A stretch of DNA of 64,000 nucleotides from positions 2,944,001-3,008,000 of the forward strand of contig OY762721.1 in the NCBI GenBank assembly GCA_963666345.1, written 5' to 3'. Origin of the DNA: Desulfatiglandales bacterium (GTDB lineage Bacteria; Desulfobacterota; DSM-4660; Desulfatiglandales; Desulfatiglandaceae). The notes beneath the pieces are model-generated. The model made no database searches and was not told the DNA's origin. It saw only the letters and a list, made by a program, of their open reading frames with translations. How positions within the stretch are numbered: position 1 is the stretch's first letter; each line of letters begins with the position of its first letter. The position numbers and the translations under genes are program-made. Positions 3,268-22,072 of the stretch are shown in pieces.

Positions 3268-3321
3268 TATGGAGGTTGCTCCATAAAAATATGGAGCTAT
3301 CACTATGGAATAAATTCCATA
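3268..3321. promoter_or_regulatory. Two 18-bp palindromes TATGGAR-N4-YTCCATA, putative operator of the NtrC-type activator
   Basis: TATGGAGGTTGCTCCATA (3268-3285) and TATGGAATAAATTCCATA (3304-3321); related sites upstream of gvpA. Confidence 0.7.
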
Positions 3322-3346
3322 TATTTTTACAAAAGGCTGACTCTCG

Positions 3347-5914: not shown

Positions 5915-5923
5915 GGGTTATCA

Positions 5924-8610: not shown

Positions 8611-8678
8611 AGAGGGTCGTCCTTCATGGGAAGCAAAGGACTCAAAACGCCGGAATCCGGGGAAAAGGACTCTACAGG

Positions 8679-9101
8679 ATGAAAAAAAATCGTACTCAAC
8701 GAAAACAGATAGTCCTCGTTATTGAGGACGAAAAGGAAGTCCTGACTATCTTAGCCCGATTACTCAACAACGAGGGTTATAATGTCTTAGAGGCGGAAAA
8801 CGGTGCCCATGCAGTGCAAATTGCCGGTAGAATTAAACCGGACGTGGCTTTACTGGATCTGAATCTGCCCGACTGTAACGGTATCCGGCTGTTGGGAGAA
8901 CTTAAGGCGATGGACAAGACCCTTCAGGTGATTATCCTGACCGCTCACGGCACGCAGGAGGCGGTTCGGAGCGCGATGGAACTCGGGGCCTTTAATTTCC
9001 TGACCAAACCCTTTGAATTTAACGAATTGTGCGAGGCGGTGCGGGAGGCCTTTGAAACAAAATACGGTTTGGTCAAGCAGGATGAACAACATGTCCAATG
9101 A
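8679..9101 (+). CDS. Single-domain response regulator
   Basis: IEDE, LLDLNLPD, LTAHG, KPF. Confidence 0.9.
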   Translation: MKKNRTQRKQIVLVIEDEKEVLTILARLLNNEGYNVLEAENGAHAVQIAGRIKPDVALLDLNLPDCNGIRLLGELKAMDKTLQVIILTAHGTQEAVRSAMELGAFNFLTKPFEFNELCEAVREAFETKYGLVKQDEQHVQ

Positions 9102-9903
9102 TTCCAGCGCCATTTACCTTTTCTGTTTTGCACGACGCCACAGACTGCCGGTTTTTGAGGTCGGCGGTCTGGATCATCGACATCCTGTTTCATTCTGGGC
9201 ATTCAAAGATATCGTTGCGGTGCTGGGCATGTCATCCCTCGAGGATTTTTGCGGCCCGGAAGCTGAAAACAGGATGAAGGACCTGGCATGGATCGGACCT
9301 CGTGTCTGCCGCCACGAAGAGGTCGTGGAGGAAGTCATGCGCCGTTCTCCGGCATTTCCAGCCCGGTTCGGAACCATTTTTTCCTCGCTTGACGCCCTTG
9401 AGAAACTCCTTGACGTCCACTACGATAAAATATCCCGGTTCCTGGATAAGGCAGCGGACAAGGAAGAATGGGCCGTAAAGGGGCTGTTGAACAGGGTGCA
9501 GACCAGGACAAGTTTTTCGACACTTATGCTTTCAAGGGAAGAAGGGCGACTGGCCTCACTTTCGCCGGGAAAGCGATATCTTGCCGAGCAGCGAATCAGA
9601 AGCAGTGCCGACAGGGAACTGAACATCTGGTTGAATGGGATCATTAAGGGTATCGGGGACGACTTGTGTCGGCATTCCTCTGAATTTCGTGAACGCAAGG
9701 TGCTTTCCCCTGACAGCGAAGCAATGGAGATGGTCCTGAACTGGGCATTTTGGACAGCGCGGGAAGATGCCGATGATTTTCGGGCCAGGGTCGACAGGGC
9801 AAATGAACAGAATGACCGGCAGGGACTGCTGTTACAACTATCGGGGCCATGGCCCCCTTACAGCTTTCTACCCAACCTTGATTTGGTGACCGGTGAACAG
9901 TGA
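9091..9903 (+). CDS. GvpL/GvpF family gas vesicle protein
   Basis: IYLFCF, HEEVVEEV, PARFGTIF, EWAVK, SGPWPPYSF. Confidence 0.9.
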   Translation: MSNDSSAIYLFCFARRHRLPVFEVGGLDHRHPVSFWAFKDIVAVLGMSSLEDFCGPEAENRMKDLAWIGPRVCRHEEVVEEVMRRSPAFPARFGTIFSSLDALEKLLDVHYDKISRFLDKAADKEEWAVKGLLNRVQTRTSFSTLMLSREEGRLASLSPGKRYLAEQRIRSSADRELNIWLNGIIKGIGDDLCRHSSEFRERKVLSPDSEAMEMVLNWAFWTAREDADDFRARVDRANEQNDRQGLLLQLSGPWPPYSFLPNLDLVTGEQ

Positions 9904-10357
9904 TCGGTAATCAGTGAACAGTGGGGACGAAAATGAGTGAATTGGGACATGCAGAAAGTTTTCGAGACTTGATTGTATATCAAAAAGCCAGGAAAGTTGC
10001 CAGTAGGATCTTTGAGATTACCAGGGGCTTTCCGAAGGAAGAGATGTATTCATTAACTGATCAGATAAGACGATCATCAAGGTCGATTGGTGCCCAAATA
10101 GCAGAGGCGTGGGTAAAGCGACGCTATGAAAAACATTTTGTAAGCAAACTTACCGATGCTGACGGTGAGCAATTGGAGACACAACATTGGATCGACACAG
10201 CAATGGATTGCGGATATCTTGATGATGCCCAAGCGGTCGACTTGAACGATGAACTCTCTAAGATTGGCCGAATGCTAAACTCAATGATCAAAAAGTCTGA
10301 ACAATTCTGCGGAAAAGATCACAGGTAACCGATCACCGATTACCGATTACCGATCAC
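9886..10357. mobile_element. Four-helix-bundle cassette 1 bracketed by inverted heptamer arrays
   Basis: Left GTGACCG GTGAACA GTGATCG GTAATCA GTGAACA (9886-9920); right AGATCAC AGGTAAC CGATCAC CGATTAC CGATTAC CGATCAC (10316-10357); mobility is inferred. Confidence 0.6.
9933..10328 (+). CDS. Four helix bundle protein (23S rRNA intervening-sequence protein / bAvd-like family)
   Basis: SFRDLIVYQKA..FPKEEMYSLTDQIRRSSRSI..E..ETQHW. Confidence 0.92.
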   Translation: MSELGHAESFRDLIVYQKARKVASRIFEITRGFPKEEMYSLTDQIRRSSRSIGAQIAEAWVKRRYEKHFVSKLTDADGEQLETQHWIDTAMDCGYLDDAQAVDLNDELSKIGRMLNSMIKKSEQFCGKDHR

Positions 10358-10380
10358 TGTACAGTGGGGATTTACAAAGC

Positions 10381-11184
10381 GTGTATTTACTGTATTGCAT
10401 ATTTCACGGCATTGAAGTCCAAAGGCAAGCGACCCTTAAGGGGGTTGGCGGTCAACCTGTCTTTCCGGTTGCGATAAACGGCATCGGCGCTGCCGTATCC
10501 GAAATTAGCGATGCGCATTTGACGCCTGATGTTCCGCAGGTCATGGCATACAAAAAGGTTGTAGAATCATTTCACAGCGATCGAACGGTCATTCCCATGC
10601 GATACGGCTGTGTGCTCAGGGACAGGCCTCAGGTTGTTCAGCTTTTGAAGAGAAACGCCCGTCGGTATGAATCGCTTCTCAAAGAACTGGATGGCTGCGT
10701 GGAGATGGGGATTCGATTGATGATTGATGATTGCCGATTGTCGATTGAAGATTTAAGGAAATCGGAGTTAGAAAATTTCGATCCGCAATCCGCAATCCAG
10801 AATCCAAAATCCAAAATCACGGGACGGGCATATCTGGCCGCCCGAAAAGAGCATTATGCCCAAGAAGAATGCATCACGGAAGCGAACAATGAAATCGCCG
10901 AGCAATTCCGTGCCGCGTTGGCCGGTCTCTTCGTGAAATGTAAAGTTGAGACTGCTGCAATCGCCAATCGCCAATCCGCAATCCACAATCCACTTCTTTC
11001 CCTTTATTTTCTCGTGCCTAAAAAATCCATTGATCCGTTCCGGCGGGTTTTTCGGCACATGCGCCGCAGGATGGAAACCACGAAGCTTCTTTTGAGCGGG
11101 CCATGGCCTCCTTACAGTTTTGTGCTGCCTGACAAGAAAGAGCGCCGGTCGGGGCTTCAGGACAAAGAGGTAAAAGAAAGGTAA
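10381..11184 (+). CDS. GvpL/GvpF family gas vesicle protein carrying in-frame repeat insertions
   Basis: YLLYCI, VIPMRYG, EMGIR, SGPWPPYSF; repeat-derived peptides LMIDDCRLSIED/PQSAIQNPKSKI/ANRQSAIHNP. Confidence 0.9.
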   Translation: MYLLYCIFHGIEVQRQATLKGVGGQPVFPVAINGIGAAVSEISDAHLTPDVPQVMAYKKVVESFHSDRTVIPMRYGCVLRDRPQVVQLLKRNARRYESLLKELDGCVEMGIRLMIDDCRLSIEDLRKSELENFDPQSAIQNPKSKITGRAYLAARKEHYAQEECITEANNEIAEQFRAALAGLFVKCKVETAAIANRQSAIHNPLLSLYFLVPKKSIDPFRRVFRHMRRRMETTKLLLSGPWPPYSFVLPDKKERRSGLQDKEVKER

Positions 11185-11193
11185 CCCTGGACC

Positions 11194-12666
11194 ATGAATG
11201 CCGAATCCGTGAACGCCTCCGATATATCCTCAAAACATGAAGGTCTCTATGAAATGCTTTTAGAGTCCATTCCCTCTTCTGTCCTGCTGATCGACAAAAC
11301 GCTGTCCATCGTATCCGCAAATCGAAATTTCCTTGAAAAAAACGACCTGTCCTTATCCGAGACAATCGGGCAAAAGCTGGAAAAAGTGTTCCCGGACGTA
11401 ATCCTCCACCGGTTGCCTGTCCTGGATCAAATCCGGGGTGTTTTTCAAACCAGCGAACCGACCAATGGCCAGCGGTTGACCTATCGGGCCCCCGGGGTCC
11501 CCATGAGGGTTTATTACTATAAAATGATCCCGGTCATTCGGCAGGGCGTGATTGAAAACGTGATGTTTCTGATGGATGATATCACCCAGCAGGTGAAATT
11601 GAGCGAGAAGATCCAGCAGGTTGAACGTCACCTCGCGAGTGTCGTTGAGAGTGCCACTGACATCGTTCTATCCCTTGATACGGGGGGGCGGTTTTTGTCC
11701 ATGAACCCGGCCGCGGAAAAAATTTTCGGGTTCTCCATCGAGGATAACGATGGCCCGCTGTTTCAGGACTGTTTGCTTAAAGATGAAAAAAAAGAAATGC
11801 AGAAGGTTTTTTCTGAAGTGATGCACGGTAATAAAGCAAAAGCAGTCGAATGGGACCTGATTACAAAAGAGAAAGTGAGCATTCGCGTCTCCTGGATTTT
11901 TTCACCCATGAAGGATGAAATGTCGAAACCGATCGGCATCGTGGCGGTGGGAAGAGACTTAACCGAGCAGCGCAAATTGGAGATGGAGCTTTTTCAGTCA
12001 CAGAAACTCTCCGCCCTGGGCGTTATGGCTGGAGGTGTTGCCCATGAAATCAGAAATCCGCTGGCCATCAGTTCTTCCGCCGCCCAATTTCTCATGGATG
12101 ATGATATTACCGCTGAGTTTCGCAAGGAGTGTGCGGCTAAAGTTAATTTGGGCATTCAGAGAGCTGCCGCCATCATTGATAACCTTATAAAATTTGCCCG
12201 GCCGGCGTCAAAGCACAGGGTTGAGCCTGTTGAACTCATCTCTCTTCTGCAGGAAACAGTATCTCTGGTCTCCAATCAGGCCGGGATACAAAAAATCGAA
12301 ATAATATCGCATCTCTCCGGGGAATCCTTTACGGTCCAGGGGGTTTACGGACTTCTCCAGCAATTGTTCCTAAACCTTTTCCTGAACGCCATTGCGGCCA
12401 TGCCGCACGGAGGTATCCTGACCCTCTCTGCAGAAAGTCGGGTCGGGGACGTTTTGCTTCGGATAACGGATACGGGGGGCGGTATACCGGGAAAAAACAT
12501 CGATAAAATATTCGACCCTTTTTTTACGACCGGTTCCATAGGAGAAGGCATAGGATTGGGGCTTTCCATCGCCTATGCCATCGTGAAACAGCACGTCGGC
12601 ACTATTGAGGTGCATAGTGCCAGAGGAAAGGGAAGCACCTTCATCGTGAAGCTGCCCACACAGTGA
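11194..12666 (+). CDS. PAS-PAS sensor histidine kinase (GvrB-like position)
   Basis: Two PAS domains, GVAHEIRNPL, HATPase. Confidence 0.93.
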   Translation: MNAESVNASDISSKHEGLYEMLLESIPSSVLLIDKTLSIVSANRNFLEKNDLSLSETIGQKLEKVFPDVILHRLPVLDQIRGVFQTSEPTNGQRLTYRAPGVPMRVYYYKMIPVIRQGVIENVMFLMDDITQQVKLSEKIQQVERHLASVVESATDIVLSLDTGGRFLSMNPAAEKIFGFSIEDNDGPLFQDCLLKDEKKEMQKVFSEVMHGNKAKAVEWDLITKEKVSIRVSWIFSPMKDEMSKPIGIVAVGRDLTEQRKLEMELFQSQKLSALGVMAGGVAHEIRNPLAISSSAAQFLMDDDITAEFRKECAAKVNLGIQRAAAIIDNLIKFARPASKHRVEPVELISLLQETVSLVSNQAGIQKIEIISHLSGESFTVQGVYGLLQQLFLNLFLNAIAAMPHGGILTLSAESRVGDVLLRITDTGGGIPGKNIDKIFDPFFTTGSIGEGIGLGLSIAYAIVKQHVGTIEVHSARGKGSTFIVKLPTQ

Positions 12667-12711
12667 GGCGTTCCATTGACGATTGATGATTGGTGATTGA
12701 GGGCTGAAAAC

Positions 12712-13092
12712 ATGAAAACCAAAGAGCGGACCGTTCTCATTGTAGATGACGAGCCGGATATATTCTGGGTTATGGAACACCTCCTGAAGCAGGAAGGATT
12801 TGTCCTGATCGGGGCCTTGAACGGGCTGGAAACCCTGGTGGTCATGGAAAAAAAACATTTTGAACTGATTTTGCTTGACGCCAAACTGCCTGATATTGAG
12901 GGTTTGGCGCTGGCAAAAAAAATAAGGGAGATGGATTCAACGATTCCCATTGTGCTGATATCCGGATATCTTAGCCGGGATGACGAAATCGTTCAGGACG
13001 CACTCTCCAGCGGATTGATCTCGGAGTATATCTCCAAACCTTTTCAGCACACCGAGATCCTGAATGCAGTGAAAAATCTGTTGCTTTTGTAA
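12712..13092 (+). CDS. Single-domain response regulator (GvrC-like position)
   Basis: IVDDE, LLDAKLPD, ISGY, KPF. Confidence 0.9.
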   Translation: MKTKERTVLIVDDEPDIFWVMEHLLKQEGFVLIGALNGLETLVVMEKKHFELILLDAKLPDIEGLALAKKIREMDSTIPIVLISGYLSRDDEIVQDALSSGLISEYISKPFQHTEILNAVKNLLLL

Positions 13093-13108
13093 ACCCCGGT
13101 CTCTGAAA

Positions 13109-13148
13109 TATGGAATGGATTCCATTTTATAATGGCGCCTGTTCCATA
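13109..13148. promoter_or_regulatory. Putative upstream activator sequences for the gvpA sigma54 promoter
   Basis: TATGGAATGGATTCCATT (13109-13126) and AATGGCGCCTGTTCCATA (13131-13148), 22 bp apart. Confidence 0.65.
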
Positions 13149-13266
13149 GCCCCTATTTCCTGTTTTTTATCCTTTGAGAATCAATTCCCCCGTCCTCCGT
13201 TCAAATTACCCTTGATTTCAGCCGGTTGAAAGGGATTAAAGCTTCCACCACAAATGTACGTGTCTC

Positions 13267-13282
13267 CGGCACGGTTAATGCA
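13267..13282 (+). promoter_or_regulatory. Sigma54 -24/-12 promoter of gvpA operon
   Basis: CGGCACGGTTAATGCA; GG-N10-GC spacing exact. Confidence 0.8.
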
Positions 13283-13354
13283 ATAAATATTGTCTGCATG
13301 CATGCATATGGCAAAATCAGTTTAACCGACAAAAAACCAGAAAGGAGAAACATC

Positions 13355-13573
13355 ATGGCAAAAGTACAAAAATCGACAGATTCCTCGAGCCTGGCAGAGG
13401 TTGTGGACAGAATCCTCGACAAAGGCATTGTAATCGATGCATGGGCCAAGGTATCGCTTGTTGGGATAGAATTGCTGTCTATCGAAGCGCGTGTGGTGAT
13501 CGCTTCAGTGGAAACCTATTTGAAGTATGCCGAAGCCATCGGCCTCACAGCCTCCGCTGCAGCTCCTGCCTGA
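13355..13573 (+). CDS. gvpA: Major gas vesicle structural protein GvpA
   Basis: [71 protein letters not shown]. Confidence 0.98.
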
Positions 13574-13735
13574 AAGATCGGTGTGAAGGCAGCTTAGGCG
13601 GAATGAAACGACCCGCAACCGTTGCCCTTCCCCGTTAAACCCATATGGGCAATCTTTACGCGAGGAGCCGATCCCAAGGCTCCTCACGTTCAGACAACAT
13701 CTGTTTCCATTATAAACCGAGAAAGGAGAAGGACC

Positions 13736-14830
13736 ATGGGGCGATTAACGGAAGATATGACAAATCTGCGTGATGGAATAGACGCCCTCCGCAACGGGCG
13801 GGTGGAATTCATCGCCGGTTTAAAACACGGCATGTCTGAACTCAAGTCCGATGTGGCGGACATGCAGCAAGGTTTCCGCAAAGATTACACCCGGATGGCC
13901 GGAAACATGAAAGACAATTTGAAGGCCTTCATGGCTGAAACAGAAGCATATGTCTCAAACCTGAAAAATGACGTGGTGGACATGCAGGATAATTTCCGCA
14001 GCGATCACGCCGATATGGCCCGTAAGTTGAAAGACGATCTTAGTGGGTTTGCATCCGGGATAACATCCTCCGTGGCCGACCTGATGGATCTCTTCAGTGA
14101 CGACCGTGCCAAGATGGCCGGAAACATGAAAGACAGTTTGAAGGCCTTCATGGCTGAAACAGAAGCATATGTCTCAAACTTGAAAAATGACGTGGCGGAC
14201 ATGCAGGATAATTTCCGCAACGACCACGCCGATATGGCCGGCAAGTTGAAAAAGAATCTTCGGATGTTCGCAGCCGGCATAAAGTCCACCGTGTCCGATC
14301 TGGAAAAGCAATTTCGAGATGAGCATATCGAGATGACCGGCAAGGCCGGGGCTGAACGCCAAATGTTTTTTTCAAACGTGAAACAATCGCTTGCCGACCT
14401 GAAACTGAAAACAACCGATCTTCTTCAGGATATTAGCGATGATCTTGCCGGGGCCCGCAGGGCATGGTCCGGCACAACACCAACACCGTCCAGGAAAAGG
14501 ACTGCCGAAAAGGTCCCCAGGCCTGCCAAAAAACAGGCAGAACCGGAGAAGGTTGCACTTCCGGTCAAAGATCAGGAAGCGCAAGAGAGTACCGAAGATG
14601 TGCCTTTAAAGGTACGCCAACCCGCCAAAGCACAGGCAAAATCGGATGATCTCACACAGATCAATGGAATTGGTCCCGTCATGAGCAGGTGTCTGAACAA
14701 GGCCGGTATTTTTACGTTCGCAAAATTGGCTTCAAGCACCACTGAGGAAATCCGGGGAGCGCTGGGGCAATCGGCAAAGTTTGCCAACTTTGAGAGGTGG
14801 GTCAAGGAGGCCGGGAAATTGAGCAGCTAA
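13736..14830 (+). CDS. GvpC-like helical-repeat protein with C-terminal helix-hairpin-helix domain
   Basis: Position between gvpA and gvpN; 33/40-aa amphipathic repeats; DDLTQINGIGP..L..AGI.TF..LA tail. Confidence 0.7.
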   Translation: MGRLTEDMTNLRDGIDALRNGRVEFIAGLKHGMSELKSDVADMQQGFRKDYTRMAGNMKDNLKAFMAETEAYVSNLKNDVVDMQDNFRSDHADMARKLKDDLSGFASGITSSVADLMDLFSDDRAKMAGNMKDSLKAFMAETEAYVSNLKNDVADMQDNFRNDHADMAGKLKKNLRMFAAGIKSTVSDLEKQFRDEHIEMTGKAGAERQMFFSNVKQSLADLKLKTTDLLQDISDDLAGARRAWSGTTPTPSRKRTAEKVPRPAKKQAEPEKVALPVKDQEAQESTEDVPLKVRQPAKAQAKSDDLTQINGIGPVMSRCLNKAGIFTFAKLASSTTEEIRGALGQSAKFANFERWVKEAGKLSS

Positions 14831-14912
14831 ACAGCGTGTTCGCCTCAGGTCCCGGTCTTTTTTTGTCAAATTCACGATTTTCAAGAAAATTTTCAATGTC
14901 GGGAGAGTTTCA

Positions 14913-15878
14913 ATGAAGACTAAATCTTTGAATCGCACCTCGGAAGCAATCCAGATAATGCCGATGCCAAATGATAACGTTCTGCCCGAGCCCAGCAAGG
15001 AATTCGTCAACACCTCTTACATCCGGGATGTGACGGAGCGTGCCCTTGCTTATCTCAATGTGGGATATCCGGTACACTTTTCCGGCCCGGCAGGCACGGG
15101 AAAAACAACCCTTGCCTTTCATATTGCCGCACAGCTCGGCAGGCCGGTCTCTCTCATTCACGGAGATGACGAGTTCGGAAGCTCCGACCTGATTGGACGG
15201 GATTCGGGATACCGAAAGTATAAACTTTATGACAATTATATCCATTCCGTCATGAAAACCGAGGAGCATTTGAATACACAGTGGGAGGACAACCGGTTGA
15301 CCACGGCATGCAAAAACGGGAATACGCTCATTTACGATGAGTTTACCCGGTCTAGACCGGAGGCCAATAATGCGCTTCTCAGCGTCCTAGAAGAAAAATT
15401 TTTAAATCTGCCAAGGCTTCGAAGGGCCGATAAGGGGTACATGGAAGTGCATCCCGATTTCCGGGCGATCTTTACTTCCAACCCCGAGGAGTATGCAGGG
15501 GTCCACAAAACCCAGGACGCACTGATGGACCGTCTAATCACCATTCATCTGGGCCATTTTGACAGGGAGACGGAGGTGCAGGTTGCAATGGCCAGGTCGG
15601 GTCTGAAACTCAGCGATGCCGAAACCATTGTCGACATCGTGAGAGGGTTGCGAAATACGGGAGTAAATAACAACCGGCCCACCATTCGTGCCAGCATCGC
15701 CATTGTCCGCATCCTGGCAAACCTTGGCGGGCACGCCCGGATGGACGACCCCGTTTTCATCCGCACATGCCGTGACGTCCTGAGCACCAATACGGCCAAG
15801 GTTACCCGCGGGGGCCAGCCACTCATGCCCGAGGTGCTGGAGGAGGTTATGCAGAAGGTCTGCGGAACCCGGACATAA
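14913..15878 (+). CDS. gvpN: Gas vesicle AAA ATPase GvpN
   Basis: GPAGTGKTT, DNYIHSV, YDEFTRSRPEANN, TSNPEEYAGVHKTQDALMDRL. Confidence 0.97.
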   Translation: MKTKSLNRTSEAIQIMPMPNDNVLPEPSKEFVNTSYIRDVTERALAYLNVGYPVHFSGPAGTGKTTLAFHIAAQLGRPVSLIHGDDEFGSSDLIGRDSGYRKYKLYDNYIHSVMKTEEHLNTQWEDNRLTTACKNGNTLIYDEFTRSRPEANNALLSVLEEKFLNLPRLRRADKGYMEVHPDFRAIFTSNPEEYAGVHKTQDALMDRLITIHLGHFDRETEVQVAMARSGLKLSDAETIVDIVRGLRNTGVNNNRPTIRASIAIVRILANLGGHARMDDPVFIRTCRDVLSTNTAKVTRGGQPLMPEVLEEVMQKVCGTRT

Positions 15879-15903
15879 CCGGCCGGAGACCGTTGGCCGC
15901 TCA

Positions 15904-16023
15904 TATTGGCGATTGCAGATTTGTGATTGATGATTTGCGATTGTCGATTGAAGGAATTCTATATTTTATCAAAAAAGAAAGAGCGAAGCGATTCCACAAA
16001 TCAACAATCAACAATCGACAATA
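15904..16023. repeat. Gene-less inverted heptamer element (MITE-like) with GAGCGAAGCG core
   Basis: 7x GATTGNN-like left, 4x NNCAATC-like right, AT-rich centre. Confidence 0.85.
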
Positions 16024-16038
16024 AAAAGGAGCCAAAAG

Positions 16039-16362
16039 ATGCCTTTACCCAAAAAAATCATTCGAGGTTTGGCAAACATCCGCACACGCTCGGGAACCCG
16101 CGACCAGGTATCCGAGCCGTACAAGGCTTTTCTTAGAATCGGATCACTGGAGATGGAGAAAGCCCGGCGGGGCAAGGAAAAGGAAAGCGCAATGAACCGT
16201 GTGCATAATATAGATGACCGTTTCCTGGAAATCGAGGCTGAAAAATCTGAACTTCTAAAGGCAATCGGCATAACGGCCAGCGGCGATGCTTGCGGTAATC
16301 CGGCCAATGGGTCGAAGCGTGAGACGGCCCAAAATAATGGCGGATTCAAAATATCTTACTGA
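16039..16362 (+). CDS. GvpV-like small coiled-coil protein
   Basis: AAGGAG RBS; position directly after gvpN; LEMEKARR coiled coil. Confidence 0.6.
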   Translation: MPLPKKIIRGLANIRTRSGTRDQVSEPYKAFLRIGSLEMEKARRGKEKESAMNRVHNIDDRFLEIEAEKSELLKAIGITASGDACGNPANGSKRETAQNNGGFKISY

Positions 16363-16493
16363 GTATCAGTATGGATTATAGGATTGATGATTGACTATTG
16401 GTGATTGTCGATTGAAAAGCGCCTTAAAAGCTAAAGCATACAATATCCAAACACCAAAAACATTATTTTAAGGGTTATATATGAGGTAAACCG

Positions 16494-16750
16494 ATGCCAA
16501 GGTTGAAGGGGGCGGCCTATATCCACACCAGCCGAACGATCCGAGGTTTTCGGTCCTGTCGGCACTTTACCGGGATATCTCTCACCTACTTTGAGTCCGG
16601 CCGGATCGGATTCGAAAAAGAGAAAATAGCCGTCAGGGAAGCGTTGAACAGAAGACACGGTCAAAGTCACCGTGCAGGTTCTCGTCTGCTGTCCGAGGGT
16701 GTTCCGGTTCATGACAGGAAGACGCTTATTGGAGATAGAAACAAGAAAGG
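16494..16750 (+). pseudogene. Possible degenerate paralog of the GvpV-like gene
   Basis: GAGGT RBS; MPRLKG..RTIRG..RIGFEKEK in one frame and RRLLEIETRK in another echo IIRGL..LEMEK..RFLEIEAEK. Confidence 0.3.
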
Positions 16751-16770
16751 GCAAAGAAAGGGGTCAAGAT

Positions 16771-16956
16771 ATGAAAATCAACTGTCTTTCCTGCGGGCAC
16801 AAAGTAGACCTGGACGATGTTTACGATGATTATCAAGGCCAGATCAGGTGTTTGACCTGCGCCGCGATGCTGGAAATCAAAACCGAGGAAGGTCAACTCA
16901 GATCTGTCATATGGGCTAATGTTCCGCCCTCCCCTTTGGAAGAGAAAACCGCCTGA
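16771..16956 (+). CDS. Small zinc-ribbon protein (CxxC-x18-CxxC)
   Basis: MKINCLSCGH...IRCLTCAAMLEI; AGGGG RBS. Confidence 0.75.
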   Translation: MKINCLSCGHKVDLDDVYDDYQGQIRCLTCAAMLEIKTEEGQLRSVIWANVPPSPLEEKTA

Positions 16957-17007
16957 GGGCGCTTTGACAATTACCCGCAAACGTAAGAAAAGGATTGGGA
17001 AAGCAAA

Positions 17008-17772
17008 ATGGCTGCGCAATCTCCGGATCATAAAGGAAGATACTTATACGCCGTAATCGCCGGGGCCGGCGGGCAAAACCTGGAAACACAGGGAATTGAC
17101 AACGGCGCCCTCTATACCATTTCTGAAGGGAAAATCTCGGCTGTTGTCAGCGATGTCCCCAACAAAAAGCTGCGACCGGAACGGAGACACCTGGCGGCCC
17201 ACCAGGGTGTGCTTCGGCGGTTGATGGAAGAGGGCACGCCGCTCCCCATGACATTCGGTATCATTGCGGACGGTTCCCGGGCAATCAGGCGGATACTGAC
17301 CCTAAACGAAAAAGCTTTTCAGGAAGCGCTTGACCATGTCAACGGGAAAGTGGAAATGGGACTGCGGGTCACCTGGGATGTACCGAATATATTCGATTAT
17401 TTTATCAACACCCATCCGGAACTCAGAGCGGTACGAGATCGGTATTTCGGCACCAATCTGGAACCGGCGCACGCGGATAAGTTAGCGCTGGGGCGTATGT
17501 TCGACAACCTGTTGAATGAAGAAAGGGAGATCCACACCGAAAAGGTAGAAGAGATTCTTGCCGGTGTCTGCTTCGAGATCAACCGAAACCCATGCCGAAG
17601 CGAACTGGAAGTCATGAGCCTGGCCTGCCTTGTGGGACGGGATAAGGCGAAACAAAAAGCGTTTGAAAAAGGCATTTTGGAAGCAGCCAATCCGTTCGAC
17701 AACAATTATGCCTTCGATTACAACGGCCCCTGGGCTCCCCATAATTTCGTGGATATAGAGCTTAAGTTATGA
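17008..17772 (+). CDS. gvpF: Gas vesicle protein GvpF (GvpL/F family)
   Basis: GRYLYAVI, AHQGVL, LPMTFG, GKVEMGLRVTW, GPWAPHNFV; precedes gvpG. Confidence 0.9.
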   Translation: MAAQSPDHKGRYLYAVIAGAGGQNLETQGIDNGALYTISEGKISAVVSDVPNKKLRPERRHLAAHQGVLRRLMEEGTPLPMTFGIIADGSRAIRRILTLNEKAFQEALDHVNGKVEMGLRVTWDVPNIFDYFINTHPELRAVRDRYFGTNLEPAHADKLALGRMFDNLLNEEREIHTEKVEEILAGVCFEINRNPCRSELEVMSLACLVGRDKAKQKAFEKGILEAANPFDNNYAFDYNGPWAPHNFVDIELKL

Positions 17773-17792
17773 ATGAAGAGAAAACAATTTTT

Positions 17793-17933
17793 GATTGGCG
17801 ATTGGCGATTGGCGATTGACGATTTAAGGAAGTCGCTTCGCTCCATTATTATTTTTATAAATATAGAGCGATATTCCTCAATTTTTCAAACGGTGTTATT
17901 CAATCAACAATCGCCAATCAACAATCAACAATG
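17793..17933. repeat. Gene-less inverted heptamer element abutting the gvpG start codon
   Basis: GATTGGC x3 GATTGAC GATTTAA + GTCGCTTCGCTC ... TTCAATC AACAATC GCCAATC AACAATC AACAATG. Confidence 0.88.
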
Positions 17934-18212
17934 CTTATAGTCGATGACATACTGTTTTTTCCGATGCGTAGTATCCTCTGGATATTTCGCGAACTGCACA
18001 ACTCCGTCCGGCAGGAGATGGAAAACGAGGCCGAGTCCATCACGGCGGAACTGAGCGATCTTTATATGATGTTAGAGACGGAAAGAATAACGGAAGACGA
18101 GTTCGACGCCCGTGAAAAACAGCTCCTTGACCGGCTGGAAATGATACAGGAGCGCAATACCGGTATCGAAGATGATGAAGAAGACCCTGATCCGGATAAA
18201 CCGGGAGAGTGA
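17931..18212 (+). CDS. gvpG: Gas vesicle protein GvpG
   Basis: MLIVDDILFFP..WIFREL...ITEDEFDAREKQLLDRL. Confidence 0.92.
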   Translation: MLIVDDILFFPMRSILWIFRELHNSVRQEMENEAESITAELSDLYMMLETERITEDEFDAREKQLLDRLEMIQERNTGIEDDEEDPDPDKPGE

Positions 18213-18322
18213 CAACTGATCAGTAACCGGCCTCCGGCCCAGAGGGACCTACGCCCCGGAGGATGATCAGTGAAAAAAGATCGGTGACCGATAACCTATG
18301 ACTGATATCCGGTACCAGATTA
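18209..18322. repeat. Gene-less GTGANCN-type heptamer element containing a 32-bp GC-rich hairpin
   Basis: GTGACAA CTGATCA GTAACCG [CCTCCGG...CCGGAGG 18231-18262] ATGATCA GTGAAAA ... CGGTGAC CGATAAC CTATGAC. Confidence 0.65.
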
Positions 18323-18334
18323 AAGGGCTAAATA

Positions 18335-20422
18335 GTGACGGGAGAGCAACCGGAAGGATGTCAAAGTTTGAACACAGAACCACACAAGGACTCACCTCTT
18401 TTCCTTCGCAACAGCCATTTGCGAATCCTTTTTTTCGGCGGCAAAGGCGGTGTCGGCAAGACAACGTGCGCTACGGCCACGGTGCTCAGACTGGCCAAGC
18501 GCACCGCGGAAGCCTCCTTTCTCTTAGTCTCGACAGATCCGGCCCATTCTCTGGCCGATAGCCTGGCCGACACCACCCTTCCTTGCAATTTAAACGTTAT
18601 CGAACTCGACGCAGGAAAATCCCTAACCGCTTTCAAGAAAAACCACACCCGGAAACTCAGGGAGATTGCATCCCGCGGAACTTTCTTTGACGGAGAAGAT
18701 ATCAATGAGATCCTGGACCTCTCCCTGCCGGGCATGGACGAGCTGATGGCCTTTCTCGAGATCGCGGGGTGGGTGGAAAATGAGACGTATGACTGCATTG
18801 TGGTGGATACCGCTCCAACGGGACACACTCTCAGACTGCTGGCCATGCCGGCGTTGATCAAAAGGTGGCTTGATGCGCTGGATGCGCTGTTAGCCAAGCA
18901 TCGTTATATGAAGAAGCTGTTCAGCGGTTCTTATCGGCCTGATGATCTGGATAAATTCCTGTCCGGGATGGCCGGTTCGGTCAAACAGATGGAGGCGCTG
19001 CTGCAGGATCCGGAACGATGCTGTTTTGTTCCCGTTATGCTTGCCGAAGCCTTGAGCGTCACAGAGACCTCGAGGCTGTTGGAGGGATTGAAACAATCAA
19101 AGATACCGGTCACCGATATCGTGGTGAACAGGCTTTACCCGGAAAGTATTTGTATGGTTTGTTCGGACCGGCACATCCGACAGATGGGAGAGCTCGGTCA
19201 ACTTGAAAAGAAAATATCCGCTTATTCCCTATGGGGAATTCAACAATACCCGGAAGAAATTCGCGGTCCGGCTCCTCTCGAGGTATTCTGGGATGGACTT
19301 GTTGCATTGAACAATCAACCCCGGTTGAATATTCTAAAGATTCAACGGGGCAAGCAATCAGCAATCCATGGCCCAGACCTGGCCGGCCCAGATCCTGCGG
19401 TCAAGGGAAGTACATGGAGAACCAACAGAAGTAAAAGCATGCTCAGAGCATGTCGCGCCAGGGCGGGCATCAATCGCCAATCAACAATCGCCAATCAACA
19501 ATCCAAACCGCCTGTTCCTGAAAAGAGGCTCCTGGTTTTTGCCGGAAAGGGGGGAGTTGGAAAGACCACCCTGGCCTGTGCCACGGCAGTCAGGATGGCC
19601 CGGACATTTCCGGATAAGGGGGTTTTTCTATTCTCTACGGATCCGGCCCATTCCCTGTCGGACTGTCTAAGGAAACGGATCGGACCGGAGCCGACAGAGC
19701 TTATTCCCGGACTGACAGCCATGGAGATCGACGCACAGGCAGAGTTCGATGGCTTGAAAAAAAAGTATGCGGCAGAACTGGAGAGGTTTCTTGTCGCCCT
19801 CTCGCCCGATCTTGATCTGACATTTGATCGCGAAGTGATGGAACGCGTCATGGATCTCTCTCCCCCCGGCCTGGATGAAGTGATGGCCCTCACCCTAGCC
19901 ATGGGTTTTCTCGCCGAGGATCAATACCAGGTCTTCGTGCTCGATTCGGCCCCGACTGGGCACCTGATCCGGCTTTTGGAAACCCCGGAGCTCATTCAGC
20001 AGTGGCTCAAGATGTTTTTCAACCTTTTTCTGAAGTATAAGCGCGTTTTTCGGCTTCCCGGGGTCTCGGAGCAAATGATCCGGATATCAAAAGATCTCAA
20101 ACGCCTGCTTGCCCTGTTAAAGGATTTCGACCGGTCGGCGCTATATGCGGTGACCATACTGACGGAGATGGCATTTCAGGAGACAGCGGACCTGGTGGCT
20201 GCCTGCCTGCGAATGGGGATAAATGTGCCGACGCTTTTTCTCAATCTTGCCACACCGGTCAGTGAGTGCCCTCTTTGCTCGGCCCTTTACCGGAACGAGG
20301 AGCAGATCAGAAAAAAGTTTGAGCGAACCTTTCCCGGAAAGTCCCAGGTCCTGGTCCATTACATGGGGGAAACGCGGGGCATGCAGCGAATCGAGGCGCT
20401 GGGAGATGAGATTTATGATTGA
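18335..20422 (+). CDS. ArsA/GET3-family tandem ATPase of the gas vesicle cluster
   Basis: Two GKGGVGKTT / STDPAHSL / D(T/S)APTGH modules; no ars genes nearby. Confidence 0.93.
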   Translation: MTGEQPEGCQSLNTEPHKDSPLFLRNSHLRILFFGGKGGVGKTTCATATVLRLAKRTAEASFLLVSTDPAHSLADSLADTTLPCNLNVIELDAGKSLTAFKKNHTRKLREIASRGTFFDGEDINEILDLSLPGMDELMAFLEIAGWVENETYDCIVVDTAPTGHTLRLLAMPALIKRWLDALDALLAKHRYMKKLFSGSYRPDDLDKFLSGMAGSVKQMEALLQDPERCCFVPVMLAEALSVTETSRLLEGLKQSKIPVTDIVVNRLYPESICMVCSDRHIRQMGELGQLEKKISAYSLWGIQQYPEEIRGPAPLEVFWDGLVALNNQPRLNILKIQRGKQSAIHGPDLAGPDPAVKGSTWRTNRSKSMLRACRARAGINRQSTIANQQSKPPVPEKRLLVFAGKGGVGKTTLACATAVRMARTFPDKGVFLFSTDPAHSLSDCLRKRIGPEPTELIPGLTAMEIDAQAEFDGLKKKYAAELERFLVALSPDLDLTFDREVMERVMDLSPPGLDEVMALTLAMGFLAEDQYQVFVLDSAPTGHLIRLLETPELIQQWLKMFFNLFLKYKRVFRLPGVSEQMIRISKDLKRLLALLKDFDRSALYAVTILTEMAFQETADLVAACLRMGINVPTLFLNLATPVSECPLCSALYRNEEQIRKKFERTFPGKSQVLVHYMGETRGMQRIEALGDEIYD
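19369..19470 (+). repeat. 102-bp constant-end element, copy 1 (in-frame in ArsA linker)
   Basis: Ends TGGCCCAGACCTGGC / GTCGCGCCAGGGCGGGCAT match reverse complement of 27962-28063. Confidence 0.85.
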
Positions 20423-20441
20423 TGATTGGAGGAAATAAATT

Positions 20442-20705
20442 ATGGCTGATTTTTCCATCGAGGAAACGGAACATATCTCTCTTTGCGAGACCCTGGATCG
20501 CATTCTCAACAAAGGCGCCGTTATTTTCGGTGAAGTGGTGATTTCCGTTGCCAATGTGGATTTGATCTACATTGCCTTGCAGGTGCTGGTTGGTTCAGTC
20601 GAAACGGTGCGGGGGGAAATGCCGATAAGTGGTTCTAATCCTCCTCCCATAAGACTTGGGATCAGGGCAGACAATGTCGGCAAATTAGAGATTGGCGATT
20701 GTTGA
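20442..20705 (+). CDS. GvpA/GvpJ-family minor gas vesicle protein
   Basis: SLCETLDRILNKGAVIFGEVVISVANVDLIYI. Confidence 0.9.
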   Translation: MADFSIEETEHISLCETLDRILNKGAVIFGEVVISVANVDLIYIALQVLVGSVETVRGEMPISGSNPPPIRLGIRADNVGKLEIGDC

Positions 20706-20788
20706 TTGGCGATTTACGATTGAATCCGGTTTTGAGTTTTTCAATCAACAATCCAGAAGTCATCAATCCAAAGGAGGACGTTGGTAAA

Positions 20789-21184
20789 ATGATCAATCAT
20801 CAATCATCAATCATCAATCATCAATCAAAAAAGGTTGAATCCGAAACCCTCAGCGATTTTGCCAGAGTCATGGGTAAGGACACCGTGCAGGCTCAATCGC
20901 ATTGCGAAGTGAACGACCGTCGCGCCCGGATCGAACTTGATCCGGAAAAGGCAAAAAACGGGCTCGGTCAACTGGTGCTCACCCTAATGAAAGTCATTCA
21001 CGAACTCCTGGAACTTCAGGCGATCCGTCGAATCGACGCGGGGTCACTCATGGATGAAGAGGTTGAAAACATCGGGATGACTTTGATGAAGCAGGCCGAG
21101 GAGATTGACAGGCTCAGAAAAGAGTTCAACCTGGAGGAGGATGATCTCAATATTGACTTGGGGCCACTGGGGAAACTCTTATAA
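20789..21184 (+). CDS. gvpK: Gas vesicle protein GvpK (repeat-derived N-terminus; start uncertain)
   Basis: GLGQLVLTL..ELLELQAIRR..G.L..EEVE..G..LM...DLNIDLGPLGKLL. Confidence 0.93.
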   Translation: MINHQSSIINHQSKKVESETLSDFARVMGKDTVQAQSHCEVNDRRARIELDPEKAKNGLGQLVLTLMKVIHELLELQAIRRIDAGSLMDEEVENIGMTLMKQAEEIDRLRKEFNLEEDDLNIDLGPLGKLL

Positions 21185-21636
21185 TTGTTGATTGACGATT
21201 GTTGATTGATGATTGAAAGAAACAAATCTTATTTAAGAGGAGGATATGGAGTTAGATCCTGAAGAATTGAAAAAAAGGACAAAAGATTTCGCTCATAGGT
21301 GTGTAAAGCTTGCTATTTCATTGCCACGAACCACACTGGGAAAGCACATTGAATCTCAGTTAATCAGGTGTTCGACATCTGTAGCATCAAATTATCGAGC
21401 CAGTATTCATGCCCAGTCAAAAGCTGCATTTATAGCGAAAATAAGTATTGTAATTGAAGAATCAGACGAATCTGAGCTTTGGTTGGAATTCGTGATGGAT
21501 GAAAAGCTAATGGAAAGAAAGAAGGTTTTGCCGCTTTTCAATGAAGCACATGAACTATCTTCCATTTTTATAACCACAAGAAGGACAGCTCAGAAAAAGA
21601 AAAAAATCAACAATCATAAATCATAAATCAACAATC
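21183..21636. mobile_element. Four-helix-bundle cassette 2 bracketed by inverted heptamer arrays
   Basis: Left AATTGTT GATTGAC GATTGTT GATTGAT GATTGAA (21183-21217); right AAAAATC AACAATC ATAAATC ATAAATC AACAATC (21602-21636); mobility is inferred. Confidence 0.6.
21246..21626 (+). CDS. Four helix bundle protein (23S rRNA IVP family, second subfamily)
   Basis: LKKRTKDFA..QLIRCSTSVASNYRA..AQSKAAFIAKISIVIEESDESELWLE. Confidence 0.92.
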   Translation: MELDPEELKKRTKDFAHRCVKLAISLPRTTLGKHIESQLIRCSTSVASNYRASIHAQSKAAFIAKISIVIEESDESELWLEFVMDEKLMERKKVLPLFNEAHELSSIFITTRRTAQKKKKINNHKS

Positions 21637-21654
21637 AAAACCGGAGGTTTTCAT

Positions 21655-21984
21655 ATGGCCATTCAACGTGCAGCACAGCATTCCATCGCGAGCACCAACC
21701 TTGCCGATTTGCTCGAACGTATTTTGGACAAGGGGATCGTGATAGCGGGGGATATCAAGATCAGCCTGGTCGACGTCGAACTGCTGACCATCCAGCTTCG
21801 CCTGGTCATATGTTCCGTGGATAAGGCCAGGGAGATGGGCATGGACTGGTGGGTAAATAACCCCTGCTTCACCCGGGGGGCAAAAAATGATCAAGTCGTT
21901 GATTCCCTTGAAAGGATCGAGAAAAGACTCGAAAGACTGGAATCTTCCCCTTTGAAAGAATCCGGAAGTGATTCAGCACCTTAA
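21655..21984 (+). CDS. gvpJ: Gas vesicle protein GvpJ-like
   Basis: [51 protein letters not shown]. Confidence 0.9.
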   Translation: MAIQRAAQHSIASTNLADLLERILDKGIVIAGDIKISLVDVELLTIQLRLVICSVDKAREMGMDWWVNNPCFTRGAKNDQVVDSLERIEKRLERLESSPLKESGSDSAP

Positions 21985-22072
21985 GCCCGCGGTTTCCATT
22001 TGCGAAATTAAGCGTTGGATACATGGTTTTCGCCCGCAAGGGCAAAGCGACTGAAGACGAGGAGGTCGAATT

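Follow-up and report, generated by a model that had tools for sequence, protein, structure and literature searches.

The heptamer arrays in the gas-vesicle region studied here probably belong to a family of small insertable cassettes, as their arms, as gene-less derivatives or as decayed remnants. The window, i.e. the whole stretch of 64,000 nucleotides that was analysed (contig OY762721.1 of a Desulfatiglandales bacterium), contains two such cassettes with their four-helix-bundle gene. Positions are those of the window unless the genome is named. The window was compared with the orthologous gas-vesicle cluster of a relative from another genus (G009, a draft genome of 360 contigs), which shows 83-92% nucleotide identity. 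The features are as follows.

9886..9923, + strand: cassette 1, 5' arm, about five units GTGAwCn (TRF, sequence; absent from G009)
9921..10328, + strand: four-helix-bundle gene 1 (PF05635 5.4e-33, PF22296 bAvd-like 4.1e-12)
10317..10357, + strand: cassette 1, 3' arm, GATyACC units, reverse complement of the 5' arm (TRF, sequence)
10714..10753, + strand: GATTGnn array in frame in GvpL/F2 (MIDDCRLSIE) (TRF, sequence; conserved in G009)
10781..10818, + strand: nnCAATC-type array in frame in GvpL/F2, decayed partner of 10714 (TRF)
10958..10991, + strand: nnCAATC array in frame in GvpL/F2 (IANRQSAIHNP) (TRF; a shorter one in G009)
12675..12700, + strand: lone GATTGnn array at a histidine-kinase/response-regulator gene junction (TRF, sequence)
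15905..16022, + strand: gene-less hairpin between gvpN and the next ORF (TRF, sequence)
16382..16470, + strand: GATTG array, then a decayed CAAnnnC arm (TRF, sequence; clean indel relative to G009)
17793..17932, no strand assigned: gene-less hairpin between the gvpL/F3 stop and gvpG start (TRF; absent in G009)
18209..18295, + strand: imperfect palindrome of GTGA/TCAC-type words, between gvpG and ArsA-like gene (sequence; no TRF row)
19353..19503, + strand: CAATC arrays in frame in the linker of a two-domain ArsA-like ATPase (TRF, sequence)
20410..20428, + strand: short GATTG array at the ArsA-like gene stop (TRF)
20690..20827, + strand: gene-less hairpin whose CAATC arm codes for the GvpK N-terminus (MINHQSSIINHQSKK) (TRF, sequence)
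21184..21216, + strand: cassette 2, 5' arm, GATTGnn units (TRF, sequence; orthologous arm in G009)
21246..21626, + strand: four-helix-bundle gene 2 (PF05635 6.7e-13)
21602..21640, + strand: cassette 2, 3' arm, nnCAATC-type units (TRF, sequence)

Census of the arrays

Tandem Repeats Finder (TRF) returned 47 rows in the whole window, and 25 rows of period 7, 14 or 21 lay within 9886-21640. Outside this segment only three rows of these periods were found (36749, 38603 and 63932), each of about two copies and chance-like, in agreement with the near-absence of arrays that an earlier note on this DNA had reported for the remaining window. The same note had listed about 20 arrays in some 12 kb, and a TRF row was recovered within a few bases at 17 of the 19 places. 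The other two were 18209, the imperfect palindrome, and 19353, where only two CAATC units are present. After merging, 210 arrays of period 7, 14 or 21 were counted in the 4,162,108 bases of the genome and 20 in the window. Seventeen of these lay within 9886-21640, where the density was about 30 times that of the genome. Strict GATTG arrays (core repeated at a spacing of exactly 7 nt, three units or more) numbered 14 in the 4.16-Mb genome: 11 at 9000-22000 of the window, none elsewhere in the window and three at 1.6188-1.6335 Mb of the genome. Lag-7 arrays numbered 62 in the real genome vs 1 in a shuffled genome.

Arrays are concentrated locally at two hot spots. One is the gas-vesicle cluster and the other a chemotaxis/histidine-kinase operon, so the earlier picture of a system colonising gas-vesicle operons was too narrow. 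An additional cassette was found between oligopeptide-transporter-type genes. Two further heptamer array families of the genome, GCTGAnn and GTTAynn, occur without any PF05635 gene.

Six inverted close pairs of arrays were counted in the window, and at least four pairs are without an enclosed gene. Reading of the sequence and ORFs bore out the three arrangements described before, i.e. a four-helix-bundle gene inside two pairs, nothing inside others and in-frame translation of others. The G/T-rich array does come first in the transcript in all six close pairs. As strand evidence this order fails: an inverted repeat reads alike on both strands, and pair polarity is thus uninformative on the transcribed strand.

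Cassettes with a four-helix-bundle gene

The 5' arm of cassette 1 also provides the final codons and stop of GvpL/F1 (ORF 9013-9903). Gene 1 starts at GTG 9921 in the ORF list; ATG 9933 is the likely start. Its product is a small basic four-helix bundle. PF05635 scores were 113.8 bits for gene 1 and 49.2 bits for gene 2 (cut-off 33.8). The proposed relation to bAvd held for gene 1, which reached 47 bits with PF22296 (bAvd-like, cut-off 40). In the domain search, matches of the flanked genes were confined to these two families. PDB relatives of gene 1 were 2rld and 2gsc, each deposited with five chains, and the clade profile of gene 2 matched 2rld at 3.7e-29. Gene 2 has a strong ribosome-binding site (AGGAGGA), and its final codons and stop lie inside the 3' arm. 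The arms of cassette 1 paired in the minimum free energy (MFE) fold of 9875-10370 (z -2.6, 0 of 100 shuffles as good). Those of cassette 2 paired in the MFE fold of 21170-21650, but the whole-molecule z was just -1.15. The arm stems of both cassettes are interrupted, and of the two folds only 9875-10370 beats every shuffle.

Gene-less hairpins and translated arrays

Hairpin 15905..16022 consists of a GATTG arm, a 48-nt loop with AGAGCGAAGCGATTCC and a CAATC arm (fold z -1.8 on the plus and -3.4 on the minus strand). Hairpin 17793..17932 carries the loop module GGAGCGAAGCGACTTCC on the minus strand and gave the lowest z (-6.9 plus, -7.3 minus), equalled by 0 of 200 shuffles. The corresponding values were -2.5 (plus) and -4.6 (minus) for hairpin 20690..20827 and -1.7 for the palindrome at 18209..18295. 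A 16-nt loop module is common to two window hairpins; no common body sequence was seen among the window hairpins, which share only the unit and, in two, this module.

Comparison of the sequence with the ORFs located in-frame arrays in GvpL/F2, in the ArsA-like linker, in the GvpK N-terminus and in the last GvpL/F1 codons. The peptides encoded in GvpL/F2 are MIDDCRLSIE, QSAIQNPKSKI and IANRQSAIHNP. Array 10714..10753 had no counterpart in orthologs at 39-55% identity, and no array was found at the place corresponding to 10781..10818 in G009. The fold of 10705-10825, which spans both, was at shuffle level (z -0.4). The ArsA-like linker array encodes INRQSTIANQQSK; it is split by a 109-nt insert here and is a single uninterrupted, shorter array in G009.

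Comparison with G009 and natural populations

A search of an orthologous gvp cluster for empty sites had been proposed. The G009 cluster lacks both four-helix-bundle genes and several arrays, with clean boundaries. The site of cassette 1 is empty, the entire block 9886-10375 being missing. At the site of cassette 2 both arms are kept, gene 2 is missing and a 19-nt loop lies between the arms. Four arrays or array-type elements are cleanly absent (12675, 16382, 17793 and 18209), the first at the orthologous junction on G009 contig C169. Hairpin 15905..16022 has both arms in G009 with a loop shorter by 44 nt, the counterpart of array 20410..20428 is 30 nt longer, and some arrays of G009 lack a counterpart in this genome. 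The empty sites of G009 hold one unit-like word, GATCGGTGA or GGATTA. Neither a target-site duplication nor a terminal repeat beyond the arrays was seen at the clean indels. No close GATTG-type gene was detected in G009, a draft in which a copy may be unassembled, though GATTG hairpins are present. Identity to gene 2 is 31-34% for its nearest G009 relatives, which have other units, GAACATC in two cases.

In natural populations, one contig of run X6 joins 16367 to 16483 and skips element 16382, and a joint of the same run from 17756 to 17970 skips hairpin 17793. In run X5, one contig lacks 7 nt, a single unit, at 20710. The cassettes appear to be gained and lost over the time scale of genus divergence.

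Cassettes in other phyla

Eighty loci encoding relatives with 54-77% identity were collected, 72 of them with both flanks. They come from Acidobacteriota, Verrucomicrobiota, Planctomycetota, Chloroflexota, Bacteroidota, Nitrospirota, Cyanobacteria, Parcubacteria and others. Inverted period-7 regions were present on both sides in 68 of the 72 loci, and periods 5, 6, 8, 9 and 10 were so in 0-1. Counted by flank, 140 of 144 had a period-7 region vs 34 of 401 control windows located 350-1015 nt away. In 60 of the 64 loci that could be analysed, downstream units matched the upstream consensus in reverse complement, and G exceeded C in the upstream arm in 67 of 67. In a logo of 610 units, position 2 was G in 83%, position 3 A in 94% and position 5 T in 88%, giving a conserved core nGAwTkn, inverted on the flanks. 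In 12 cross-phylum cassettes read whole, the arrays abut host stop and start codons and nothing lies beyond them. Nostoc and Planktothrix plasmids provided further cases of the tie between array and gene. Wrapping of this gene family in mirror-image heptamer arrays is a general packaging and not specific to gas vesicles. No published description of heptamer-armed four-helix-bundle cassettes was found in the literature searched.

Other PF05635 copies in the genome

On inspection, all of the best 20 of the 39 PF05635 hits of the genome had inverted 7-, 8- or 9-nt units on their flanks. The units are GATTGnn or GTGAwCn in the window and CGGAAnn, an octamer and a 9-mer elsewhere. Terminal inverted repeats (TIR) mark the octamer-armed family, whose 38 paired elements measure 213-603 nt. 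An 8-bp target duplication (TSD; at least 7 of 8 positions matching) accompanies 31 of the 38 vs 7 of 2000 random pairs. A PF05635 hit lies inside 25 of the 38 elements, which accounts for 27 of the 39 hits. This family is a true TIR/TSD MITE that carries most PF05635 copies of the genome. Since most copies here are cargo of such an element, the PF05635 gene need not drive mobility. Three identical ISL3-family insertion sequences generate 8-bp A/T-rich duplications; their tip is GGTTCATC, and the MITE tips are GGATCATC and GGTTCTTC.

RNA pairing

No sign of selection for RNA pairing was found in wobble counts or in unit-order comparison. Would-be G-U mismatches were 116 in sense vs 116 in antisense, and no strand difference in stem energy was seen (38 vs 27 loci, Wilcoxon p 0.16). 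Antisense-strand folding of the window stems was equal to or better than sense. Variable unit positions matched between arms at p<0.05 in 2 of 60 loci, not beyond chance. The 'stem' may be a by-product of two arrays of the same unit, because variable unit positions are uncoordinated between arms. Cognate heptamer recognition by the protein is plausible, because every protein lineage here has its own unit; co-inheritance accounts for lineage-specific units equally well.

Proposed explanation and alternatives

The idea of a transposase-free element family, put forward in the earlier note, fits both the indels relative to G009 and the cross-phylum loci: arrays and four-helix-bundle genes form an insertable unit without its own transposase. 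A complete cassette would be a promoter-less PF05635 gene with its own ribosome-binding site, flanked by tandem arrays, inverted to each other, whose short unit is specific to the lineage. Its place would be within a transcription unit of the host, either precisely between two genes or in a linker or terminus that tolerates it. The arms may be recognition sites for the encoded protein, on DNA or RNA, a step held tentatively. By analogy with rRNA intervening sequences, it is possible to the same degree that the arms pair in the transcript and are cut by RNase III. Arm recognition and RNase III processing are not mutually exclusive. Spread within the cluster could conceivably proceed by array recombination or gene conversion plus slippage rather than by a transposase, which is somewhat more doubtful.

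Three other explanations were weighed. The heptamer hairpins could be ordinary MITEs whose movement depends on a DDE transposase acting in trans, with the four-helix-bundle gene as passive cargo. The octamer-armed family with its target duplications fits this, as do the 8-bp A/T-rich duplications of the ISL3-family copies and the tips compared above. In the window, however, heptamer cassettes and hairpins have no terminal repeats outside the arrays and no target duplication at the clean indels, their copies have the unit in common and no body, and the 12 cassettes from other phyla abut host codons with nothing outside; for the heptamer type this origin is improbable. The arrays could instead be slippage-prone simple repeats like STRR or TAACTGA that arise independently, four-helix-bundle genes tending to insert there. 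Unit number indeed varies between strains and genera (the 7-nt deletion in run X5, the lengths in G009), the arrays at 12675 and 20410 are partnerless, GCTGAnn and GTTAynn arrays lack a PF05635 gene, and a single unit-like word stands at the G009 empty sites. Independent slippage was judged very improbable because it would not result in arms that are always inverted with one unit for both, in a polarity fixed in all 67 loci, in period 7 across phyla (68 of 72) or in a unit core conserved together with the protein clade.

Least probable is a regulatory role for the host, with the arrays serving the gas-vesicle cluster as operators, attenuators or RNA switches, for example. They do lie at gene boundaries within one long operon, and other proteins are known to have heptad arrays as operators. 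Against this, the chemotaxis/kinase operon is full of the same arrays, the majority of arrays are missing from the orthologous gvp cluster of G009, and no enrichment was found of promoter-like (15 vs 13.8 expected) or terminator-like (16 vs 16.6 expected) sequences.

Relation to known elements

In the part of PMC4990558 available, which cites Ralph & McClelland 1993 on intervening sequences (IVS), ORF-bearing 23S rRNA IVS (Leptospira, Coxiella burnetii S23p) hold a PF05635 gene in a stem loop. The stem is of 28 bp, arrays are not mentioned in that part, and the IVS is removed from the transcript by RNase III. The cassettes likewise have a PF05635 gene in the loop of a stem of complementary ends within a transcribed host RNA, and no recombinase; mobility of IVS has long been suspected, according to the same text. 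Unlike 23S IVS as described there, the host RNA here is an mRNA operon, with cassettes between gvp genes, the ends are tandem 7-nt arrays, and there are derivatives that are gene-less or in frame. An IVS lies in a helix of the 23S rRNA gene, and the sole 23S gene here (606500-609522) contains none of the 39 PF05635 hits.

Cyanobacterial STRR are heptamer direct repeats. TAACTGA repeats are intergenic heptamer direct repeats of marine Beggiatoaceae (PMC4679880, of which the part available has no mention of '23S', 'four helix', 'S23' or 'STRR'). As in both, units of 7 nt are arranged in tandem, many per genome and chiefly intergenic; unlike these, which are direct arrays as far as described, the arrays here are paired in inverted orientation and linked to a gene family. 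Rickettsia palindromic elements, Chunjie of Geobacter and REP/REPIN with RAYT are MITEs or palindromic elements inside operons or genes, and the REP/RAYT repeat, which also stands alone, flanks a gene in inverted copies. The window hairpins are similarly small, without their own transposase, tolerated in operons and sometimes in frame. They differ in having tandem arrays as arms. Terminal repeats and target duplications are lacking in the heptamer type, and the many near-identical copies of one body expected of a MITE are not present among the window hairpins. The enclosed gene is a four-helix bundle and neither a tyrosine transposase (Y1, IS200/IS605-like, the type flanked in REP/RAYT) nor a DDE transposase. 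Gene 1, PF22296-positive and encoding a small basic four-helix bundle, resembles Avd of diversity-generating retroelements, and no reverse transcriptase or template/variable repeat was found near the window cassettes. The two RVT_1 hits of the genome (2,892,162 and 3,778,801) are more than 50 kb from every window cassette.

Significance

Short-read assemblies are broken by the cassettes, the contigs of runs X3-X5 stopping at arrays, and gene calls acquire spurious extensions at C- and N-termini because of them. The heptamer element enters ordinary operons, alters the ends of genes and marks proteins with translated scars. PF05635 is, to our knowledge, a very widespread family of unknown function. 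Since 1993 its rRNA intervening sequences have counted as an oddity, and we know of no explanation of tandem heptamer repeats over about as long a time. As parts of one element, each of the three gains a testable partner. The most far-reaching version, which we consider unlikely as it stands, is that PF05635 proteins would form multimers that read sequence and bind the heptads (nGAwTkn) in their own arms and, together with host recombination or RNA-processing enzymes, would constitute a class of transposase-free mobile gene cassettes. If true, it would link rRNA intervening sequences, the very large 'four helix bundle protein' family and the abundant heptamer repeats of cyanobacteria, sulfur bacteria and others.

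Heptamer arrays in the gas-vesicle cluster

The source genome is one contig of 4.16 Mb with 48% G+C. Plain coordinates are window positions, and coordinates with the prefix G000:C1 are positions in this whole contig. The features of the region were as follows.

3300-22000 (+): gas-vesicle cluster, containing
two Hsp20-type genes and a CDC48-type AAA ATPase gene (+)
three GvpL/F paralogs and three GvpA-type genes (+)
genes for a GvpN-type AAA protein, GvpG, GvpK and a two-domain ArsA-like ATPase (+)
interleaved histidine kinase and response regulator genes (+)
9886-10375: cassette 1 (gene 1 between GTGAwCn arms)
21184-21640: cassette 2 (gene 2, 21246-21626, between GATTGnn arms)
23269-24429 (-): IS4-type DDE transposase gene (PF01609 with DUF4372), just beyond the end of the cluster

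About 20 heptamer arrays had been listed by eye in the earlier note, and the observation is real: a TRF row was found at 17 of 19 listed places, the others being a palindrome built of GTGA-type words (18209) and an array of two units (19353). TRF gave 25 rows of period 7, 14 or 21 between 9886 and 21640 and only three, all two-copy, in the remaining 52 kb of the window. The concentration of arrays was borne out by a genome-wide period-7 scan, in which 17 of 210 merged arrays fell within these 11.75 kb. Of the GATTG arrays, strictly defined, 11 of the genome's 14 lie in this stretch and the other three at 1.62-1.63 Mb. A lag-7 detector returned 62 arrays in the real genome and one in a shuffled genome. 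The two small enclosed genes, taken at first reading for four-helix-bundle genes, both matched PF05635, and gene 1 also passed the bAvd-like model. Solved relatives of genes 1 and 2 are 2rld and 2gsc, with five chains deposited for each. Rfam gave only a sub-threshold chance match (MIR161, at 23 bits where the gathering score is 90), and promoter- and terminator-like sites showed no enrichment.

The 10-mer ACAGTGGGGA follows each arm of cassette 1 (9918-9927 and 10361-10370). With each copy comes a ribosome-binding-like GGGGA site, for the cassette gene in the first case and for gvpL/F2 in the second. The pair could be a duplication made by insertion, or chance (about 0.1 expected in 500 nt).

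Comparison with orthologous clusters

The same cluster was recovered on four contigs of G009, a relative of another genus in the same family, at 83-92% nucleotide identity. The search for empty sites proposed in the earlier note was answered at cassette 1, where 30 bases of G009 link gvpL/F1 to gvpL/F2 and include one unit-like word, GATCGGTGA. At the site of cassette 2, both arms are kept round a 19-nt loop, that is, as a gene-less hairpin. Four further features are clean indels: the array at 12675, the element at 16382, hairpin 17793-17932 and the palindrome at 18209. Hairpin 15905 is common to both genomes, but its loop in G009 has 44 nt less. Only G009 has five AAATyCC units where the CDC48-type gene starts, and its array at the ArsA stop is the longer one. 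Among metagenome contigs, one from run X5 carried a one-unit deletion at 20710, and joints from run X6, a more distant relative, skipped 16382 and 17793. The elements therefore come and go, and the number of units changes.

Other arrays are shared within coding sequence. The ArsA-linker array is common to both genomes and is split by a 109-nt insert in the window genome. G009 also has the GATTG array that is read in frame in GvpL/F2; this array is absent from six orthologs of other families (39-55% identity), in which the corresponding segment is a hypervariable linker. Elements are thus tolerated in protein linkers and termini.

Joints 9923->10334 (runs X4 and X5) and 9915->10335 (run X3) were not counted as excision, their sides being only about 25 nt long and inside arrays; another locus or organism may be their source. 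An inverted heptamer pair with TGACGAw/wTCGTCA units lies downstream of a gvpL/F gene in the gas-vesicle locus of G054, a distant relative from another family (L108, about 3486-3630).

Cassettes in other phyla

Taken together, the seven four-helix-bundle proteins were too diverse to give a survey profile. The profile was therefore built from a four-member clade alignment and covers only relatives in gene 2's clade, leaving aside gene 1's. A search of one-genome-per-species contigs gave 603 confirmed stretches, the best 80 of which were 54-77% identical and came from more than 10 phyla.

Flank tests were performed on 72 loci with 150 nt on either side, all from these best 80 of 603, and the counts in this paragraph hold for that set. 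A period-7 region was present on both flanks in 68 of 72 loci; periods 5, 6, 8, 9 and 10 gave 0-1. Periodic flanks numbered 140/144, against 34/401 control windows 350-1015 nt distant. RNA duplex energies between flanks were rejected as a measure (real median -92 vs -76 and -90 in controls), and local inverted alignment scores were used in their place. The best inverted flank match had a median score of 20.5, compared with 9.5 for mismatched partners and 8.0 in direct orientation. Of 64 loci open to analysis, 60 had downstream units reverse-complementary to the upstream consensus, and the upstream arm held more G than C in 67/67. No rRNA similarity was found at these best 80 loci.

The unit logo, from 610 units, was nGAwTkn, with G at 83%, A at 94% and T at 88% at positions 2, 3 and 5. 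In 12 fully read cassettes the arrays directly adjoined the neighbouring genes, with nothing outside the arrays. Nostoc and Planktothrix plasmid relatives share the design of a gene between inverted arrays, and one plasmid cassette has a DISARM helicase gene on one side and an MmeI-type gene on the other. Phage records contained no gene 2 relative. According to the available part of PMC3936711, 18 genes of this family were noticed within cas loci; repeats are unmentioned in that part.

Some loci had other arrangements or neighbours. On a Planktothrix agardhii plasmid (L120, 1200-2040), the gene lies between two complete hairpins and not in a loop, in the order G arm, C arm, gene, G arm, C arm, with the DISARM gene drmD on one side and an MmeI-type gene on the other. 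In four Acidobacteriota loci (L043, L045, L067 and L101), a tRNA-Sec gene stands directly upstream of the cassette, about 60-220 nt before the cassette gene. In a Parcubacteria locus (L054), tRNA-Leu and tRNA-Gly genes directly follow the cassette, and the sequence just upstream resembles a tRNA 3' end.

Other sites in the same genome

The elements had been described as colonising the gas-vesicle operons. That reading is too narrow: a minus-strand operon coding for CheR, CheB, CheW and hybrid histidine kinases forms a second hot spot, and 26 arrays were counted in its bin (1.6-1.7 Mb). Within this operon are two intact PF05635 genes flanked by CGGAAnn/nnTTCCG arrays and a PF05635 fragment flanked by GATTG-type arrays. 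A cassette with 9-nt units lies between oligopeptide-permease-type and ATPase genes. Of 39 PF05635 matches in the genome, the 20 best are, by inspection, all flanked by inverted tandem units of 7, 8 or 9 nt. None of the 39 is inside the single 23S rRNA gene, and both reverse-transcriptase matches of the genome are far from any cassette. The 23S rRNA gene (G000:C1:606500-609522) measures 3023 nt, the model having 2925 positions, and may hold short insertions lacking an ORF.

The 11-mer GAGCGAAGCGA occurs 11 times in the genome (about 2 expected), in 7 cases within G+C-rich, 16-nt words resembling GGAGCGAAGCGAyTCC, immediately before the 3' arm. These words precede the 3' arms of cassettes and hairpins with differing unit types, and were located as follows.

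15979-15996 (+): in the loop of hairpin 15905-16022
17827-17843 (-): in the loop of hairpin 17793-17932
G000:C1 1198675, 1645704, 2282536, 2719031 and 3673785: elsewhere in the genome

In the 9-mer cassette, one such word follows the gene. GCGAAGC, contained in GGAGCGAAGCGAyTCC, forms a very stable DNA mini-hairpin. The gene-less hairpins therefore retain part of the anatomy of a cassette and occur in both orientations.

In this genome most PF05635 copies are part of a dispersed family whose arms are built of octamers (GGGGTCAA-type upstream, TTGAmCCC-type downstream), with, outside the arms, terminal inverted repeats GGATCATCTCCAAAAGAGTTGG... and ...CAACTAAGTTGGAGAAGAACC (also GGATCATCTCC... 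/ ...GGAGAAGAACC). Pairing of these ends gave 38 miniature elements (MITEs) of 213-603 nt. An 8-bp flanking duplication, with at least 7 of 8 positions matching, was present in 31/38, against 7/2000 random pairs. A PF05635 ORF or pseudogene was found in 25 of the 38, accounting for 27 of the 39 genomic matches, many of which have stop codons. The octamer MITE and the related insertion sequence were located as follows.

62784-63129 (-): single octamer MITE copy of the window
G000:C1 1172257-1173605, 3211806-3213154 and 3541257-3542605: three identical ISL3-family insertion sequences

The ISL3-family copies start with GGTTCATC, one mismatch from each octamer MITE tip, and have perfect 8-bp A/T-rich target duplications. 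From this likeness of tips, their transposase is a candidate for mobilising the octamer MITE in trans. IS6 (PF13610) and IS256 (PF00872) transposases had no match in the genome. The heptamer elements of the window, at the sites of indels relative to G009, have neither terminal repeats nor target duplications. Two long stretches with 'paired' terminal repeats (1783 and 2593 nt) were discarded as false pairings with unrelated genes inside. Some octamer MITEs carry a nested palindromic insert in both arms.

Two further kinds of heptamer repeat were observed.

G000:C1 246021-246102, 1564244-1564325, 1762833-1762914 and 1871408-1871489: examples of a second heptamer-armed, gene-less hairpin element of about 170 nt (arms nnTCAGC, then GCTGAnn)
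G000:C1 1.65-2.08 Mb (+) and 3.38-3.85 Mb (-), e.g. 1682688, 1682981 and 1683274: GTTAynn arrays

The polarity of the former is opposite to that of the cassettes, and a small terminal hairpin flanks each arm; 33 strict GCTGA arrays are spread over the genome. The GTTAynn arrays are inside larger, tandemly repeated units of about 293 nt that share a conserved CTTATCTCACAAAAAATACCACAGG tail, and their strand goes with chromosomal position.

Predicted arm pairing and possible recognition

Arm pairing was present in predicted folds. The best case was 17786-17935 (z -6.9); other folds were weaker, that of the in-frame pair within GvpL/F2 did not surpass shuffles, and antisense strands folded equally well or better. 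Mismatches across 67 loci comprised 116 that would pair as G-U in sense RNA, 116 that would do so in antisense and 421 transversions. Permuting unit order did not lower arm-to-arm identity (p<0.05 in only 2/60 loci). Both arms are accordingly arrays of a single unit, rather than a stem kept by compensatory change. Such a pattern agrees with selection for the unit as a recognition site present in many copies, or with slippage leading to concerted evolution. The wobble and permutation tests lend no positive support to an mRNA stem, and cutting of an imperfect duplex by RNase III would be compatible with them. The earlier note had placed the G/T-rich array first in the transcript. This order holds, but it does so on both strands of any inverted repeat; the polarity belongs to the element rather than to the transcript.

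A protein reading the repeated unit was considered alongside. Five protein lineages of the window genome go with five unit types, a match that recognition would predict and co-inheritance would predict equally. Since gene and arms are inherited together, shared protein and unit labels would not show recognition. In G009, GATTG hairpins are kept and the nearest gene 2 relatives are 31-34% identical, with other units, two of them GAACATC; in this draft of 360 contigs, the hairpins argue weakly against a need for the gene. Recognition of the arms by the protein and processing of the RNA are both putative steps.

Overall reading

Heptamer arrays around PF05635 genes were not found described in a literature search on the family names and on heptamer or heptanucleotide repeats, conducted mostly outside subscription journals. 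In the available part of PMC4990558, the Coxiella IVS is a stem-bounded element excised by RNase III, and older ideas of the IVS as a transposition remnant or mobile element are repeated. The TAACTGA repeats of PMC4679880 are direct, and the names of the family are not in the part of its text available.

The arrays and four-helix-bundle genes had been proposed to form one element family. This reading is well supported, by the indels relative to G009 and by the same packaging in many phyla, and the link of these elements to gas vesicles is incidental.
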